Assembly (NCBI GenBank): GCA_963782525.1
Contig: CAWAKC010000011.1
Span: forward strand, 32,001-96,000
Direction: 5' to 3'
From: Candidatus Bathyarchaeota archaeon
Lineage (GTDB): Archaea; Thermoproteota; Bathyarchaeia; Bathyarchaeales; Bathycorpusculaceae
Length of the DNA: 64,000 nucleotides
The notes under the pieces were generated by a model, which was given only the letters and a program-made list of their open reading frames with translations, had not been told where the DNA came from and did no database searches. Made by a program: the position numbers and the translations under genes. Position 1 is the stretch's first letter; the number at the start of each line of letters is the position of its first letter. Of the stretch, positions 2,923-11,403 are shown piece by piece.

Positions 2923-3750
2923 GTGGGGTTAAAGTTGACTATCCAAACTAACAGGACATTTGGCGGCGTCGGCGCTGTTTTCTCTGCGCTCGGCGTAGTC
3001 AGCACCGTTTCATCGGTCTTTTTGTATGGATATCCAAATTCAACACTTGTTAACTTGCCACTAGCTCTTGTTACCAGTTTTGTGGGGCTTTTTTCTTTTG
3101 TCGGATTTATCTTGTTTCTTGTTGCCATGTATGGCTTTTCAAGGGATTATAATGAACACCGCATATTCAACTATCTCCTATATGGATTTCTTGGAACCAT
3201 TGTGGCTGCAATCATAGCTGGAGTGATTGTAGTTGTCGTAATTTTATTGAACATCTCGAGTATAATTCCAAACCTTAATCACCCAACCACAACACCCTCA
3301 CAAGTTTCATCATCCATGTTAAATTTTATGTCGCCCTTCTTGGCGGTTTTCTCTTTTGTCGGTGTAATTTGGATTGTTTTCAATGTTCTGGCATTTAGGT
3401 TGCTGGGGAAAAAAGCTGCCGTACCCCTGTTTGGTACTGCTGCATCAATTCTGCTTGCGGGCGCCATAGTTAATGTTGCGGTGGGCATAGTGTTTGCTGT
3501 GCTGTTGTATTGGGGGCCGATTGGTTACAACACTTTCTTGTTGGCAGCAGTTCCGGGTGGACTAGTGCAAAATGCTGCATGGGTTTTGTTGGCTATCGCT
3601 TTCTTTAGGATAAAAGTGCCACCTGAACAAACGATTGCTATTTCCAGCGTTCCTCCATTGGCATTTCAAATGAAATACTGCCCAAACTGCGGAACACCAA
3701 ACCAACCAGACGCCGCTTTCTGCACTCGATGCGGACAAAAACTCAGCTAA
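2923..3750 (+). CDS. DUF996-type membrane protein with C-terminal zinc ribbon
   Basis: Multiple TM segments and terminal YCPNCG...FCTRCG. Confidence 0.7.
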   Translation: MGLKLTIQTNRTFGGVGAVFSALGVVSTVSSVFLYGYPNSTLVNLPLALVTSFVGLFSFVGFILFLVAMYGFSRDYNEHRIFNYLLYGFLGTIVAAIIAGVIVVVVILLNISSIIPNLNHPTTTPSQVSSSMLNFMSPFLAVFSFVGVIWIVFNVLAFRLLGKKAAVPLFGTAASILLAGAIVNVAVGIVFAVLLYWGPIGYNTFLLAAVPGGLVQNAAWVLLAIAFFRIKVPPEQTIAISSVPPLAFQMKYCPNCGTPNQPDAAFCTRCGQKLS

Positions 3751-4457
3751 TCTTTTTTCATTGCCTCAGCTTTGAGCTCTCTTGGCATCAACTCAATAGC
3801 ATACCGCAACGCAGTTCTTGGCATAACCTTGCGGTTCTTAAATACATAATCAAAGACTGCGTTTTGGTGTTTTCGGCTTTCCTCTTTAAGCAGCCACCCA
3901 TAACCCTTCTGCACCATATCATCCCCATCCGTTAAGAGCACGTTGCATATCTCAAAGGTATCCTGCAGAAAAAGACCCTTCTTTGCAGGGACAATGAGTG
4001 ATACAGCTGAAGCCCGCTTGAGCCAGCGGTTTTCGCTTTTAGCCCAGCTCTTCACTTCTCCCAAGACCTCAGGATATTTCTGGATTAAGTCCCCGATGGT
4101 ATGATTGCAGAATCCGTCACATTTTGCCCAGTTGTTAATGTAGCTTTCAATCCACTGCTTGAAAGTAGCCAAATCACTCGGCTCCAAGTTATCTATGTAG
4201 TTGGGCAGCCAAAAAGCAACAATGAATGCTTCTTCAGTGTAGTCGGAGCGGTAGAGTTCCTCGCATAAATTAAAAATCGCTTGTTTATCCAAAGTTTTTA
4301 CTTTTGGCCAATATTTCTTGGCGATTTTGCCAACTGTCTCGGTTTTGACACCATAATATTTTACTTGTTCTTTGAAAAATCGTTGAAAACTCTTCTGTGT
4401 TTTGGCGTCTGTGGTGGCTTTTAGGTCGGCTCTGATTTGTGCTAGGATATTGGGCAT
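3747..4457 (-). CDS. DNA alkylation repair protein (AlkD-like)
   Basis: YGVKT, NNWAKCD, W.KR.S.V, DMVQKGYGWLLKE and MPRTALRYAIE motifs. Start moved to ATG 4457. Confidence 0.85.
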   Translation of the reverse strand: MPNILAQIRADLKATTDAKTQKSFQRFFKEQVKYYGVKTETVGKIAKKYWPKVKTLDKQAIFNLCEELYRSDYTEEAFIVAFWLPNYIDNLEPSDLATFKQWIESYINNWAKCDGFCNHTIGDLIQKYPEVLGEVKSWAKSENRWLKRASAVSLIVPAKKGLFLQDTFEICNVLLTDGDDMVQKGYGWLLKEESRKHQNAVFDYVFKNRKVMPRTALRYAIELMPRELKAEAMKKD

Positions 4458-4537
4458 GACTGAAAGAAACAGAGTTTGATAATAATAGCTTTTCCAAAAA
4501 TACACAAAAATTAAAACAAAATTGGGGAAGATGGAGT

Positions 4538-4825
4538 TTAGTAGTCTTCCATCTGGTAGAGACCCAAATCAATATTCAAAGCTTTTTCGGGTCCACAGGT
4601 GTCTTCGAGGTCGTAGAGGTGACTTGTTGCTTTTTCTAAACGAGTTTTTTTAACGGTCACTTTAGCTTTAACCATCCTGACTTTCATTTTTTCCTTTGGT
4701 TTAGGCAATATGGCTGATGCGCCAAGGACCAGGGTGTTATCGATGATTTTTGGAGTGACCTCAATTTTGGGGTCTTCAAGTGATAGTCCAAGTTTTAGGT
4801 GGTCCTCATGCAGATGTTTAGTCAA
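4538..4825 (-). CDS. 95-aa protein, putative internally deleted FtsZ derivative
   Basis: TTG start overlaps the upstream RHH stop (TTGACTAA). Middle and C-terminus resemble the last strands and tail of archaeal FtsZ (recalled, not searched). No GGGTG(T/S)G tubulin motif. Confidence 0.55.
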   Translation of the reverse strand: MTKHLHEDHLKLGLSLEDPKIEVTPKIIDNTLVLGASAILPKPKEKMKVRMVKAKVTVKKTRLEKATSHLYDLEDTCGPEKALNIDLGLYQMEDY

Positions 4826-4973
4826 CGCCTTTACGCCTCCAAACTTCAGCACTGATTAGGTCTCGGATTGCGACTCGGATGGCTTCGGCACGGTTTGGAT
4901 AGAACCGTTCGTCAACCAGCTGGTCCAAAGCTTTTATATACGTTTCAGGCAGATACAGAGTGATTAGTTTCAT
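4818..4973 (-). CDS. CdrS-like ribbon-helix-helix (CopG-family) regulator
   Basis: Not in ORF track. 51 aa: MKLITLYLPETYIKALDQLVDERFYPNRAEAIRVAIRDLISAEVWRRKGVD, with the RHH beta-strand and YPNRxEAIRxAIRDL motif. Confidence 0.88.
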   Translation of the reverse strand: MKLITLYLPETYIKALDQLVDERFYPNRAEAIRVAIRDLISAEVWRRKGVD

Positions 4974-5015
4974 TAGGATTTCTCTCCCTGTGTAGGTTGA
5001 GTAATTAACTAAAAC

Positions 5016-5033
5016 GTATATTCTTGGTTATAC
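5016..5033. promoter_or_regulatory. Inverted repeat GTATA-N8-TATAC upstream of the RHH gene, candidate operator
   Basis: GTATA 5016-5020 and TATAC 5029-5033, about 45 nt upstream of the RHH start. Confidence 0.35.
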
Positions 5034-5184
5034 TTCTATATATTATGTGGCAAATATGCTTATAACATGTTCATCCAACACTATATAAACCTTGGAACAT
5101 GAAGGCTATAGTTATCTGTCAATTAAGGCACACCAAGGATCACGTTTTTATTCCTTGTTGAAGCAACTAACGAACGAACAAACC

Positions 5185-6471
5185 ATGGACAAGCGGGTTT
5201 TCATCAAAAACTTCGGCTGCTCCTCCAACACAGCAGACGGCGAAGTATTAGCAGGATGCCTAGCGCAAGCAGGATACAAAATAGTCCTATCAGAAACAGA
5301 CGCAGACCTGCTAATCTATAACACCTGTGCAGTCAAAGGACCCACAGAAAACCGCATAATCAACGAAATAAAAAATGCACCAAAAAATAAAAAAATTGTA
5401 ATCACAGGTTGTTTACCCAAGATAAGTTTTGAACGGATGATGCGCGAAGTTCATTTTGACGGTGCTGTTGGTCCGGCAGTTGGGGAAGAAATAGTTGACG
5501 TTGTCTCGCGGGTTTTTGAAGGTGAGGCAGTGGTGAATGTTGGAGCTTTAGAAAAGCCGCTTTTGGGTCTTCCAAGACAAACGTCCAACCCAATCGTAAG
5601 CATTGTTCCAATTAACTTTGGTTGCTTGGGCAGTTGCTCCTATTGTTGCGTGGTACATGCGCGTGGTCACCTTCAAAGCTACAGCATCGAAGAAATCACA
5701 AAACGCATAAAGAAAGATTATTCCGCTGGCGCCAAAGAGTTCTGGGTAACATCTCAGGACACCGCCAGCTACGGAAGAGAATTACACACTGACCTCGCAG
5801 AATTGCTTTTCACAATTGATGCTTTGGAGGGCGATTTTAGGGTTAGAGTGGGCATGATGACGCCAAACTTAGTTACCGACATGCAAAGCAGGCTAATTTG
5901 GGCTTTTGAGGATAAGAAAATCTTCAAGTTCCTCCATCTACCCGTGCAGACCGGAGACGATACTATACTACAGTACATGCGGAGATTCTACACTGCATCT
6001 GAGTTCAGGGGCATCGTTGAGTCATTCAGGGCTAATTACCGAGACTTAACGCTTGCTACCGATGTGATTGTTGGTTTTCCAGGCGAAACAGAAAAGGCTT
6101 TCCAGAATACCTTGAGGCTTTTGGAGGAGGTTAAGCCTGATGTGGTTAATGTTTCAAAGTTCTTTGCCAGACCTAAGACTCCTGCTTGGAATATGAAGGA
6201 TGGCTTGATAGAGAAGGGGGAGATTAAACGTAGAAGCACCGTTGCATCGGAGTTGGCGAAGCGGCTTTCAGCCGAGCGGAATCGGCGTTGGGTTGACTGG
6301 AGTGGAGAAGTGCTCATCGACGAGATAGGTAAGGTTGAGGGTTCATGGGTTGGACGCAACTTCGCCTACAAACCAATCGTACTAAAAAGCAAGGATAATC
6401 TGTTGGGTAGAACCTTGAAAGTTAAAGTCGTTGAGGCTTTGGGAACTTACCTAAAAGGCGAAATACAATAA
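5185..6471 (+). CDS. mtaB: tRNA methylthiotransferase (MtaB/CDKAL1-type; UPF0004, radical SAM and TRAM domains)
   Basis: FGCSSN, NTCAVK, GCL, GCLGSCSYC, HLPVQTG and IVGFPGET motifs. Start moved to ATG 5185. Confidence 0.85.
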   Translation: MDKRVFIKNFGCSSNTADGEVLAGCLAQAGYKIVLSETDADLLIYNTCAVKGPTENRIINEIKNAPKNKKIVITGCLPKISFERMMREVHFDGAVGPAVGEEIVDVVSRVFEGEAVVNVGALEKPLLGLPRQTSNPIVSIVPINFGCLGSCSYCCVVHARGHLQSYSIEEITKRIKKDYSAGAKEFWVTSQDTASYGRELHTDLAELLFTIDALEGDFRVRVGMMTPNLVTDMQSRLIWAFEDKKIFKFLHLPVQTGDDTILQYMRRFYTASEFRGIVESFRANYRDLTLATDVIVGFPGETEKAFQNTLRLLEEVKPDVVNVSKFFARPKTPAWNMKDGLIEKGEIKRRSTVASELAKRLSAERNRRWVDWSGEVLIDEIGKVEGSWVGRNFAYKPIVLKSKDNLLGRTLKVKVVEALGTYLKGEIQ

Positions 6472-10330: not shown

Positions 10331-11403
10331 TGCCCAAACTCTTCTTCCTCTTATCAGGCGAGAACGAAACGCTGCCCACCGCAGAAGTTAAGGCGATTCT
10401 GGAAGCTGAAGGCTACCTCTACTCCGGTGTGTCGGAGTTTGATCAGATTCTGCGGTTGGAAACGGATGTTGTAAGTGTGCAAGCGGTTCAGGTGCGGTCG
10501 GCATATACGCGGTTTTGTGCCTTGGAACTGTTTGTTGCAAATGCTGATTTTGATGACATCGCAAAGGCAGCGGCGGAAACAGATTTCAAAGCCGTCCTCA
10601 AACCCGGTGAAAGCTTCGTTGTGCGAATAAACCGTATTCGTAACTACGCTGACGAAGCAGTAAACACTATGACGCTTGAGGGCAGACTGGGCAAACAAAT
10701 CCTAAAGCTTACCGAAGGCACAAAAGTCAGCCTAAAAAACCCCGATAAAACATTCATCGGCATAATAACAGACGATAGACTCATTTTAGGCTTAAAATTA
10801 ACAGATATAACAAGCAAAACCTTCAGCGAGCGCCGCCCACGCAAAAAACCTTTTTTCCACCCTTCGGCGATGCCGTCGAAGATGGCGCGTTGCATGGTGA
10901 ATCTGGCGCATGCAAAAGCTGAATCGGTCGTGCTTGACCCATTTTGTGGCACAGGCACCTCACTTATCGAAGCCACATACATAGGCTGCCGAGCAGTAGG
11001 CGTTGACGCTCAAAGGCGGATGATTTTGGGCACGAGAAAAAACCTGCGATTCTTCAGCATTGACGCCGAAGGGTTGGTTTTGGCTGATTCACGAAATCCC
11101 CCATTCTTTAAAGTTGACTGTGTTGTAACTGACCCGCCTTATGGTCGCTCCTCAAGCACCCTGAAATCAACTACCAAGCAGCTGGTTGAAGAAGTTTTAG
11201 CCTCCTCGCTTGTGTTGCTCGGGGCGGGGCAACGGATTTGTATAGCCCTTCCTATACAGGTGAACGGATGTGGTGAAGTAGACCACATGGCACAAGATAT
11301 AGCAAGGTTTGTTAAGAATCTCGGATACAAAACAATTGAATCACATTTGGTTTACATTCACAGCTCATTGACACGGGAAATTATGGTTTACGAAAAAACA
11401 TGA
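10330..11403 (+). CDS. trm11: tRNA (guanine-10) methyltransferase, THUMP plus methyltransferase domains (Trm11/TrmG10)
   Basis: LSGE, KPFFHP, LDPFCGTG, TDPPYGR and H.SLTREI motifs. Confidence 0.85.
   Translation: MPKLFFLLSGENETLPTAEVKAILEAEGYLYSGVSEFDQILRLETDVVSVQAVQVRSAYTRFCALELFVANADFDDIAKAAAETDFKAVLKPGESFVVRINRIRNYADEAVNTMTLEGRLGKQILKLTEGTKVSLKNPDKTFIGIITDDRLILGLKLTDITSKTFSERRPRKKPFFHPSAMPSKMARCMVNLAHAKAESVVLDPFCGTGTSLIEATYIGCRAVGVDAQRRMILGTRKNLRFFSIDAEGLVLADSRNPPFFKVDCVVTDPPYGRSSSTLKSTTKQLVEEVLASSLVLLGAGQRICIALPIQVNGCGEVDHMAQDIARFVKNLGYKTIESHLVYIHSSLTREIMVYEKT

Follow-up and report, generated by a model that had tools for sequence, protein, structure and literature searches.

In the window, by which we mean the whole 64,000-nucleotide stretch of bathyarchaeal DNA that was analysed, a small gene for a ribbon-helix-helix (RHH) regulator is followed directly by a short open reading frame, here called mini-ftsZ, and both are read from the reverse strand (Table 1). 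The 51-aa RHH protein, which an earlier note had picked out by eye, lies above the cut-off of Pfam RHH_1 (1.5e-7, 31.6 bits; cut-off 20.5), and its top NCBIfam match is CdrS, NF058555 (4.1e-11, 42.7 bits), at a score below the cut-off of 100 set for what is a haloarchaeal model. Its sequence varies hardly, if at all, among the genus loci read. The cdrS-like gene lies directly upstream of, and co-oriented with, full-length ftsZ in relatives and the remnant in this genome.

Table 1. Genes, motifs and neighbours at the cdrS/mini-ftsZ locus (window coordinates).
Feature	Position	Strand	Remarks
mini-ftsZ, 95-aa ORF plus stop	4538..4825	-	remnant of CdrS-linked FtsZ (FtsZ2-type by synteny)
cdrS-like RHH regulator gene, 51 aa	4818..4973	-	Pfam RHH_1, NCBIfam CdrS
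TTGACTAA, mini-ftsZ start codon overlapping cdrS stop	4818..4825	-	likely translational coupling
GGAGG, Shine-Dalgarno-like	4836..4840	-	10 nt before TTG, within cdrS Trp-Arg codons; putative function
Drifted FtsZ helix H10 and strands S9-S10, now Lys-rich	4652..4786	-	residues 14 to ~58
C-terminal tail, residues 63-95	4541..4639	-	two LYxxE motifs (4604-4618, 4547-4561) and N-I-D
Three CAT(G/A)(T/A)T hexamers	5042..5069	-	candidate RHH operator overlapping promoter
GTATA-N8-TATAC palindrome	5016..5033	+	present in window
mtaB-type methylthiotransferase gene	5185..6471	+	divergent neighbour, synteny anchor; TIGR01578 1.6e-117
DNA alkylation repair gene	3747..4505	-	3' of mini-ftsZ; PF08713 2.5e-62

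The junction of the two genes is as the earlier note had read it: since the TTG that opens an intact 95-aa ORF and the TAA that closes cdrS both lie in TTGACTAA, the genes overlap by 8 nt. The ORF listing allows two frames, 4538-4852 (104 aa from a GTG) and 4538-4825 (95 aa from the TTG). Among the 25 genus loci where a pattern located cdrS, the start is TTG in 24 and ATG in one; the sister genera have TTG in three cases and ATG in one, and most of the matching representatives of 50% identity clusters begin at the TTG position too. The start codon occupies a fourfold-degenerate site of cdrS, and it is in two loci of the genus and sister genera together that ATG replaces TTG there. Because the TTG is conserved and the upstream GTG shows no conservation across genus loci, the 95-aa form is likely the product. 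The start codon of a full-length FtsZ locus (L049) overlaps the cdrS stop identically. Public gene callers also call the ORF, with the label 'hypothetical protein'.

Upstream of cdrS, CATRWT hexamers at 5064-5069, 5053-5058 and 5042-5047 lie 96, 85 and 74 nt before the ATG, with a spacing of 11 bp, and in each of the 13 loci examined, order-wide, the hexamer recurs two or three times at intervals of ~11 bp. These phased hexamers would make a candidate RHH operator that overlaps the promoter. The 34-nt upstream element is unique in the genome (PWM score 54.7, next best 13.0); no second site for this PWM was found in the genome, and therefore no regulon is derivable. The palindrome GTATA-N8-TATAC of the earlier note is real, with two matches in the window where shuffles predict 0.02, yet it is no conserved element, because just 4 of 25 genus loci have it and none of 13 loci from other genera or families does.

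Contigs from RNA libraries (four runs, four studies) cover 4536-4976, which takes in both genes and bridges their junction; they derive from relatives at 85-99% identity, may include DNA carry-over, and show cover rather than strand or transcript ends. The stretch 4980-5183 has no cover in the same four runs.

Retained and lost parts of FtsZ

An alignment by hhalign of 21 short ORFs with 11 full-length FtsZ sequences gave 98.1% (E 7.8e-14) and placed residues 33-105 of the 105-aa frame, or 23-95 of the 95-aa protein, on FtsZ columns 309-383 of 388. This block, the last ~75 FtsZ columns, covers helix H10, strands S9-S10, the linker and the C-terminal tail; BLASTP of the short ORF with FtsZ gave E values of 2e-10 and 2e-7, and a joint MAFFT alignment carries the retained block out to helix H10. 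By these alignments ~275 residues have been lost, including the entire GTPase domain and the greater part of the C-terminal domain, close to the ~270 that the earlier note had proposed. The GTPase-domain columns, with the glycine-rich tubulin signature and the nucleotide-binding loops, are missing from the short ORFs in the joint alignment, and of the FtsZ C-terminal domain (PF12327) H10, S9 and S10 alone align in the profile comparison. The 104-aa frame matches no family in Pfam or NCBIfam, PF00091, PF12327 and TIGR00065 included. An orthologous locus and an alignable C-terminus together point to descent of the 95-aa ORF from an FtsZ gene.

The N-terminus is a different matter. BLASTP with the L049 FtsZ aligns the N-terminal 19 residues alone (E 0.049), is uninformative for the C-terminus, and finds no similarity of the leader to FtsZ past the stretch that overlaps cdrS. 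Of the three-part anatomy drawn in the earlier note, then, the C-domain elements and the tail stand, while the FtsZ-like leader holds by position and not by sequence. AlphaFold2 models the short protein alone at low confidence (pLDDT 61, pTM 0.16), with no more than a hairpin, also of low confidence, over the H10-S9-S10 piece. In the tail, the residues L, Y, Q, M and E are invariant, and the pair of LYxxE motifs is found once in a six-frame translation of the genome. Its N-I-D, in a conserved L-x-I-D-L context, resembles by eye the archaeal 'GID' tail motif; the archaeal FtsZ tail consensus is reported to centre on G-I-D (PMC8178401), from which the central motif here differs in its first residue.

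Mini-ftsZ is a genuine gene that occupies the ftsZ slot, is conserved and is subject to purifying selection; conserved short orthologs, in whose absence the earlier note would have reduced it to a simple pseudogene, do exist. Orthologs occur in 35 of 36 same-genus genomes and a short-frame match in 93 of 101, at 48-97% identity within the genus; the frame is intact in nearly all of ~100 genus species as well as in five sister genera. Clustering at 50% identity gives 131 matching representatives, 127 of which are shorter than 180 aa. Outside the cdrS overlap the pooled dN/dS is 0.18, at synonymous sites that are close to saturated; for pairs with dS <1 the ratio mostly lies between 0.12 and 0.35, and it rises to 0.57 in the most divergent species. 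By part, the tail is the most conserved (0.095) and the H10-S9-S10 piece less so (0.31). The leader and hairpin part is constrained too, with pN of 0.29 against pS of 0.6-0.75.

Division genes and the ftsZ slot in the order

In this genome (95.8% complete, 12 contigs, not closed) profiles and tblastn found no full-length FtsZ. TIGR00065 has 0 matches and PF00091 has matches of 25 and 23 bits only, to a Tubulin_2-type protein and a neighbouring tubulin-like protein; in tblastn the second FtsZ paralog reaches a best E of 0.46 and the CdrS-linked paralog finds only the remnant. A SepF gene is present, as is a CdvABC-like cluster of CdvA, two ESCRT-III-like genes and a Vps4-like gene, so that the count of ftsZ, sepF and cdv genes suggested in the earlier note comes to no intact ftsZ beside SepF and Cdv. 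The same state, remnant and SepF without full-length FtsZ, is seen in G014, G193 and G194, three members of the genus whose genomes are each a single contig. Across the genus, a full-length second paralog is found in 22 of 101 genomes, and 79 of 101 lack any full-length FtsZ. This second paralog has a short tail, different from that of the remnant, and adjoins ribosomal-protein genes in two of the three genus loci read. As ftsZ2 is reported beside an RHH (parD/cdrS) gene and ftsZ1 beside translation genes (PMC8178401), the remnant would be the FtsZ2-type paralog, an assignment made by synteny and not by tree.

Elsewhere in the order, cdrS is followed by a frame of 360-399 aa in eight loci of five other families and in one other genus of the same family, which places the 95-aa ORF in the ftsZ slot, as the earlier note had it. 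A Pfam scan of four such frames gave Tubulin and FtsZ_C in two, a weak Tubulin and FtsZ_C in one, and FtsZ_C only in one. The pattern located cdrS in six of the nine full-length loci, and the divergent mtaB neighbour is there in all six; 3' of ftsZ, other families have PHP-domain and MetRS genes in place of the DNA alkylation repair gene found here. Families f7 and f9 have tail-only ORFs 3' of cdrS, and in family f6 the gene that follows cdrS is an eroded copy of 315-360 aa whose tail is intact. Short FtsZ-like frames in G143, G118, G168 and G102, considered as intermediates, lie at contig ends and were dropped as fragments.

An mtaB tree of 36 loci, built to count deletion events, is unresolved: its well-supported branches force no more than one origin, and its placement of the f7 genus g16 among rows of f1 is weakly supported. 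Our estimate of at least three deletion or erosion events is consequently based on family labels and different break points, and not on a tree. Two genomes, G286 and G041, have SepF and no FtsZ found with the queries used. An mtaB query at E 1e-30 located no locus in either, and thus the orthologous cdrS-ftsZ locus was not found there; in G286, no tail ORF was found after the sole CdrS-like gene detected. Two other genomes that were negative with the same profile turned out to have eroded copies.

By cross-tabulation, 70 of the 79 genus genomes that have no full-length FtsZ carry SepF; in the order 184 of 201 genomes do so, whatever their FtsZ state, and no lineage was found that had lost both. 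Because SepF is near-universal in the order, its co-occurrence with the remnant does not discriminate. A co-fold of two SepF cores with ORF residues 60-105 scored 0.86, against 0.01 for the best of three controls; 58 of 80 solved complexes attain this mark, as do 2 of 110 mismatched pairs. Runs agree in at least 91% of contacts, with partner pLDDT of at least 70. In this model LYQME sits on SepF copy 1 and LYDLE on copy 2, the two motifs lying in the FtsZ-binding pockets of the dimer. At 23-25 of its 27 contact positions SepF has the same residue as the SepF consensus of genomes that do have a full-length FtsZ, compared with 32-38 of 51 other core positions. The tail is thus predicted to dock on the SepF dimer, which agrees with the SepF adaptor imagined in the earlier note; as complexes of SepF with FtsZ tails have already been solved, the high score may reflect likeness to these rather than binding by this copy.

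Proposed function of the remnant

With a probability of roughly 60%, we read the 95-aa ORF as a 'headless' FtsZ, a CdrS-coupled ligand of SepF that has outlived the FtsZ polymer and whose SepF binding is predicted. A CdrS-linked FtsZ would have lost ~275 codons, those of the GTPase domain and of the larger share of the C-terminal domain, and kept its original start codon, which overlaps the cdrS stop, along with ~12 leader residues, H10-S9-S10 in drifted form, the linker and the entire tail. The gene would be co-transcribed and translationally coupled with cdrS. Its product, probably disordered for the most part, would fill both FtsZ-binding pockets of the SepF dimer with its two LYxxE motifs and so act on SepF at the membrane as a ligand, be it switch or adaptor, that is timed by CdrS and needs no FtsZ polymer, constriction being left to the Cdv/ESCRT-III machinery.

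The remnant might instead work without SepF, tail and leader binding another partner, such as a Cdv/ESCRT component or a PRC-barrel division protein, or binding CdrS itself as a co-factor or antagonist held at a fixed ratio by translational coupling. We hold this to be unlikely, if well above negligible: conservation and selection show a function and not a partner, the constraint on leader and hairpin would be needless for a pure SepF-binding tail, the coupling to cdrS is tight, and SepF persists order-wide regardless of FtsZ. Nevertheless, conservation is highest in precisely the tail, the part by which FtsZ binds SepF in solved archaeal complexes (PMC8178401), the predicted contact surface of SepF stays conserved, and the co-fold with SepF, the one partner for which a co-fold was run, passes its controls. 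It seems improbable that the remnant regulates an FtsZ1-type paralog, its hairpin or tail capping or competing with FtsZ1 filaments where these are kept and being a leftover elsewhere. Small FtsZ-capping peptides are known in bacteria and a fifth or so of the genus does keep a full-length second paralog, but the remnant is equally intact in the 79 genomes that have none, the source genome included, and because the second paralog ends in a different, short tail, the remnant faces no competitor at SepF.

Still less credit is due to a decaying, functionless fragment that is open by chance or through the cdrS overlap. The lack of a Pfam or NCBIfam family, the low-confidence fold and the 8 nt shared with cdrS at the start would suit it, whereas a frame open at 48-97% identity throughout the genus and in five sister genera, a low dN/dS outside the overlap at near-saturated synonymous sites, 131 matching clusters, and a start codon either conserved or changed to ATG argue against it. 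An assembly collapse, which the earlier note had itself raised, or a split gene with its GTPase part encoded elsewhere, has hardly any claim left: the genome is incomplete and not closed, but the same short gene recurs in more than 90 separate genomes, single-contig ones among them, RNA contigs from four studies bridge the junction and span the ORF with no joint that adds a long insert, and neither three profiles nor tblastn detected an FtsZ-type GTPase domain in the genome.

Truncated FtsZ proteins of Hyphomicrobiales and Agrobacterium reportedly keep the GTPase core and lack linker and tail. The 95-aa protein is their mirror image, having kept the tail and lost the core, and in most species it is without a full-length partner; the likeness lies in shortened copies kept by selection, which in those bacteria are thought to tune division (PMC13732431, bioRxiv 10.1101/412759). 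The closest archaeal parallel to the locus is the cdrS-ftsZ2 operon of Halobacterium salinarum and Haloferax volcanii (PMC7439475, PMC8406309), where a small RHH gene likewise directly precedes a co-oriented ftsZ paralog and where co-transcription is reported for Halobacterium (PMC7439475). In the present order the two genes even overlap; and, unlike in that operon, ftsZ here is stripped of the GTPase domain and of all but the last elements of the C-terminal domain, and CdrS falls below the haloarchaeal cut-off.

In the structures described for Methanobrevibacter smithii, a short C-terminal peptide of FtsZ sits on a dimer of SepF, a protein in which a linker joins the core to a membrane helix at the N-terminus (PMC8178401). 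The co-fold predicts the same kind of interface, with the differences that the ligand is free of polymerising FtsZ and that two LYxxE motifs reach both SepF copies. Archaeal SepF is reported to co-occur with FtsZ and to be absent where FtsZ is absent (Pende et al. 2021, PMC8178401), whereas this genus keeps SepF without full-length FtsZ. In an account of TACK archaea in which Cdv/ESCRT-III division goes with relegated FtsZ-like proteins, Bathyarchaeia are described as carrying CdvABC, FtsZ homologs and non-canonical FtsZ-like proteins (PMC9723716); the Cdv cluster of this genome brings CdvA, ESCRT-III-like and Vps4-like genes together. Darnell et al. sought FtsZ2 in Bathyarchaeota at a cut-off of >200 bits (PMC7439475), at which the 95-aa remnant is invisible. 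A search of the full text of articles turned up no description of a tail-only archaeal FtsZ, or of SepF without FtsZ, though such genomes may be listed in Supplementary Data 1 of Pende et al. or Table S1 of Darnell et al.

A large and environmentally widespread archaeal genus thus keeps SepF together with an FtsZ tail that is under selection, coupled to CdrS, a regulator of the cell cycle, and predicted to grip SepF, and related lineages have come to a similar end state by other routes. Survey score cut-offs hide such remnants, and calls of 'FtsZ absent' in other archaea may therefore deserve a second look. The genus offers a natural experiment on the roles of the FtsZ tail and SepF without the polymer, on the shift from FtsZ- to ESCRT-based division, and on whether SepF is active in its own right. 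We put forward more tentatively, as possible rather than probable, that across the order the lasting role of the CdrS-linked FtsZ has been that of a SepF ligand and not of a GTPase polymer: the core would have been deleted or eroded several times and the tail always kept, SepF and a free bivalent tail forming a polymer-independent, CdrS-timed membrane module beside ESCRT-III division. If this is true, these archaea would represent a living intermediate between two archaeal division systems.

A reduced ftsZ gene behind cdrS

The 51-aa protein encoded by the first gene in the table is a ribbon-helix-helix protein (Pfam RHH_1, 1.5e-7), in agreement with the earlier note, which placed a small protein of this type directly before an ORF in the ftsZ slot. 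Its top NCBIfam match is the CdrS model (4.1e-11), where the 42.7 bits fall below the cut-off of 100 of this haloarchaeal model. The frame that is open downstream matched no family in the Pfam or NCBIfam scan.

Features of the cdrS locus and other elements of the window
Feature	Position	Strand	Basis or remark
cdrS-like gene, 51 aa	4818-4973	-	ORF reading and RHH_1 match
Frame open downstream of cdrS	4538-4852	-	ORF reading
Short ORF, 95 aa	4538-4825	-	directly 3' of cdrS
Probable start codon TTG of short ORF	4825-4823	-	within TTGACTAA; the TAA there is the cdrS stop
GTATA-N8-TATAC palindrome	5016-5033		upstream of cdrS
Three CAT(G/A)(T/A)T hexamers, 11-bp spacing	5042-5069		upstream of cdrS; recurrence across loci
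GTATA-N8-TATAC	11240-11257		sole other exact match in the window
Multi-pass membrane protein, 275 aa	2923-3750	+	C-terminal CxxC...CxxC zinc-ribbon-like motif

Of the 25 genus loci with cdrS located, 24 have the TTG and one has ATG, and sister genera contribute three TTG and one ATG; a GTG nine codons further upstream is not conserved, and GGAGG lies 10 nt before the TTG. The product is therefore probably 95 aa long, as had been claimed. The TTG has been kept although its first T is also the third base of a cdrS valine codon, which indicates selection on the start codon itself. In locus L049 the full-length FtsZ likewise starts from this TTG, which overlaps the stop of cdrS, and thus the short ORF uses the ancestral start.

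When the 104-aa frame was searched as protein over 61 related genomes, a frame of 99–132 aa was found in 35 of 36 same-genus genomes (identity 48–97%), and in other families of the order residues ~31–104 matched the extreme end of 360–399-aa frames. We read nine loci, of which eight belong to other families and the ninth to another genus of this family; in every one a CdrS-like gene is followed by a long frame that ends in the tail. The six loci in which cdrS was located by pattern share their surroundings, with the methylthiotransferase gene mtaB divergent on the upstream side and genes for a PHP-domain protein and MetRS on the downstream side. Pfam scanning of four of the long frames gave Tubulin and FtsZ_C in two, weak Tubulin (86.7 bits) with FtsZ_C in one and FtsZ_C only in another, so that the slot is occupied in relatives by FtsZ and not by an unrelated gene.

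When 21 short ORFs and 11 full-length FtsZ sequences were compared profile to profile, the probability was 98.1% (E 7.8e-14), with short-ORF positions 33–105, numbered on the 105-aa stop-to-stop frame, paired with FtsZ columns 309–383 of 388; pairwise BLASTP over the same parts gave E 2e-10 and 2e-7. In a joint MAFFT alignment the short ORFs cover FtsZ from helix H10 to its C-terminal end, and every GTPase-domain column is empty. The retained block defined by these alignments comprises ~85 residues (H10, S9, S10, linker and tail) behind a leader of ~12 residues; ~275 FtsZ residues are missing. The drifted C-domain strands, the tail and the in-frame loss of about 270 aa including the tubulin signature, all proposed from the sequence alone, are thus borne out. 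The FtsZ-like leader is so only in part: its start is ancestral, but BLASTP comparison demonstrated no resemblance to FtsZ N-termini outside the overlap with cdrS. It is close to certain that the short ORF is a conserved FtsZ remnant; the original observation is confirmed and its interpretation supported. The locus is a derived form of the cdrS-ftsZ2 operon (PMC7439475).

Of the upstream elements, the palindrome is present as the earlier note had it but is not conserved (4 of 25 genus loci, none of 13 others). The hexamers occur in two to three copies in all 13 loci examined, mostly with the same 11-bp spacing, whether a full or a reduced ftsZ gene follows, and the 34-nt upstream element occurs once in the genome. 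Such phased direct repeats would suit cooperative binding of an RHH protein, for example CdrS, making them a candidate operator.

Selection on the remnant and its presence in RNA libraries

An open frame of this kind could be a simple pseudogene or a product of assembly collapse. Nei-Gojobori dN/dS for 25 genus sequences is 0.18 outside the cdrS overlap, 0.31 in the H10–S10 part and 0.095 in the tail, where the invariant residues cluster; most pairs with dS below 1 lie at 0.12–0.35, rising to 0.57 for the most divergent species. An FtsZ-profile search found a short-frame match in 93 of 101 genus genomes, and two of the eight misses have the short ORF by protein search. Orthologs of 103–116 aa occur in five sister genera of the family, located behind cdrS or, in the case of one short locus, at the orthologous place. 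Among 1.84 billion representatives, a profile search retrieved 131 proteins at E ≤ 0.001, 127 of them below 180 aa and most starting at the TTG/ATG position; where public names are given, they read 'hypothetical protein'. Conservation in 35 of 36 genomes at this dN/dS argues for selection and against a simple pseudogene.

In each of twenty metatranscriptome runs from 19 studies, 10–18% of the words sampled from 4300–5300 were found. Four of these runs were aligned to the locus, and their contigs cover 4536–4976: one of 425 nt spans 4537–4961 with 16 differences, one of 175 nt (4779–4927, one difference) bridges the junction of cdrS and the short ORF, and none of the contigs of the four runs contains a joint adding a long insert. 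As contigs that derive partly from relatives, with DNA carry-over possible, they document presence in RNA libraries and speak against assembly collapse, and no more.

A possibly repeated loss of the FtsZ core

The assembly (2.87 Mb, 12 contigs, 95.8% complete) has no match to TIGR00065, and tblastn with both FtsZ paralogs of relatives returned the remnant only. PF00091 gave only 25- and 23-bit matches, to two neighbouring large proteins, one of Tubulin_2 type. These adjacent divergent genes (L001 and L002, contig C1 of the same genome, G000, outside the window) encode an 891-aa frame with Tubulin_2 (47 bits) and a glycine-rich signature and a 477-aa frame with a weak Tubulin match; the products are non-canonical FtsZ-like proteins. 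The gene count suggested by the earlier note thus yields no intact ftsZ, a SepF gene and a CdvABC-like cluster. The SepF gene shares a contig with the remnant, at a distance of ~21 kb and outside the window. Its product begins with an amphipathic N-terminus, continues with a long linker rich in Pro, Glu and Thr, and has a core that matches PF04472. The compact cluster (on another contig, C4, L004 1–3501, outside the window) comprises an ESCRT-III-like protein (194 aa), CdvA (239 aa; PF18822, 30.1 bits against a cut-off of 30), a second ESCRT-III-like protein (253 aa) and a Vps4-like MIT-AAA ATPase, and is the probable constriction machinery of this genome without FtsZ. Bathyarchaeia have been reported with CdvABC together with FtsZ homologs (PMC9723716).

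Full-length FtsZ is encoded elsewhere in the genome in 22 of the 101 genus genomes. In the genus loci read, this second paralog adjoins ribosomal-protein genes (two of three) and has a short and different tail (three of three). By the neighbourhood rule of Pende et al. (PMC8178401), with ftsZ1 beside translation genes and ftsZ2 beside parD, it would be of FtsZ1 type and the CdrS-linked gene of FtsZ2 type. Two of the 22 copies are interrupted by an internal TAA and a third is divided between two frames (genomes G235 and G007, and G239), which points to continuing loss of the only full-length FtsZ that the genus still has. The remnant-bearing genera sit among FtsZ-bearing ones, as TIGR00065 matches occur in 84 of 121 genomes and 54 of 70 genera of the family (f1).

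Reduced genes are also found further afield. Family f9 has a 94-aa frame behind cdrS, the last 33 residues of which align with the FtsZ tail (97.4%, E 1.5e-11), and three genera of family f7 have frames of ~70–98 aa there, aligning over the last 26–31 residues only (95.3% and 35%). In f7 genus g16 (L069–L072), each of four genomes has a second CdrS-like RHH paralog elsewhere, with 48% identity to the CdrS of the window. Family f6 has 315–360-aa proteins behind cdrS (loci L033 in G051, L090 in G304, L091 in G251 and L026 in G059) with the tail intact and the GTP-binding motifs lost; one matches FtsZ_C only, and two without a Pfam match score 89% by hhalign against the C-terminal half of FtsZ. 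This erosion is a second route to a polymer-less FtsZ. Since a deletion cannot revert and full-length orthologs also occur within f1 and f7, the core has been lost at least three times (f1, f7, f9), f6 apart, if the family labels correspond to monophyletic groups; the mtaB tree brought no confirmation of three losses.

A putative SepF ligand

SepF is present in 89 of the 101 genus genomes. By a cross-tabulation made by hand, 70 of these belong to the 79 genomes that lack any full-length FtsZ, and 19 to the 22 that have a full-length copy. The single-contig genomes G014, G193 and G194 have the remnant and SepF and no FtsZ. Across the order 184 of 201 genomes have SepF, and keeping it is therefore not specific to remnant carriers. 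Genomes G286 and G041 have SepF with no FtsZ found, the orthologous locus being located in neither; the one CdrS-like gene found in G286 is not followed by a tail ORF. Eroded copies did turn up in two further genomes that were negative with the profile. SepF frames in the genus are mostly 165–260 aa, owing to a long Pro/Glu/Thr/Gln-rich linker, against mostly ~108–160 aa in other families of the order, and the linker thus seems expanded in the remnant-carrying genus.

In isolation the 95-aa protein is predicted to be disordered over most of its length, apart from a single hairpin and a short helix (pLDDT 61, pTM 0.16); it is lysine-rich in the middle and acidic in the tail, and the two-motif tail occurs once in the six-frame translation of the genome. 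The tail-SepF interaction suggested by the earlier note was modelled by co-folding two copies of the SepF core with frame residues 60–105, using a separate alignment for every chain. The complex scored 0.86, whereas none of three controls exceeded 0.01; of the reference cases, 58 of 80 solved complexes but only 2 of 110 mismatched pairs attain that mark. Contact agreement between runs was at least 91% and partner pLDDT at least 70. As SepF-FtsZ tail complexes have already been solved, this result is a likeness to them and not proof. The model places the final motif, LYQME, at residues 161–165 and 178 of one SepF copy, and the preceding motif, LYDLE, at residue 162 of the second copy, so that one tail would occupy both pockets of the dimer. 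Compared with a consensus of seven SepF sequences from full-length-FtsZ genomes, six from remnant-only lineages agree at 23–25 of 27 predicted contact residues and 32–38 of 51 other core positions; the predicted contacts are thus more strongly conserved than other core positions. Binding of SepF is the most likely function of the remnant, with a probability of roughly 60%.

Truncated FtsZ paralogs of bacteria reportedly keep the core and lose the tail, the opposite of what is seen here. The literature, supplementary tables apart, yielded no case like a tail-only FtsZ with SepF. Pende et al. (PMC8178401) report that archaeal SepF is missing wherever FtsZ is, and the genus runs counter to this. 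What is new is therefore a selected, widespread FtsZ descendant without the GTPase core but with the full putative partner-binding tail, in genomes where SepF persists and FtsZ does not.
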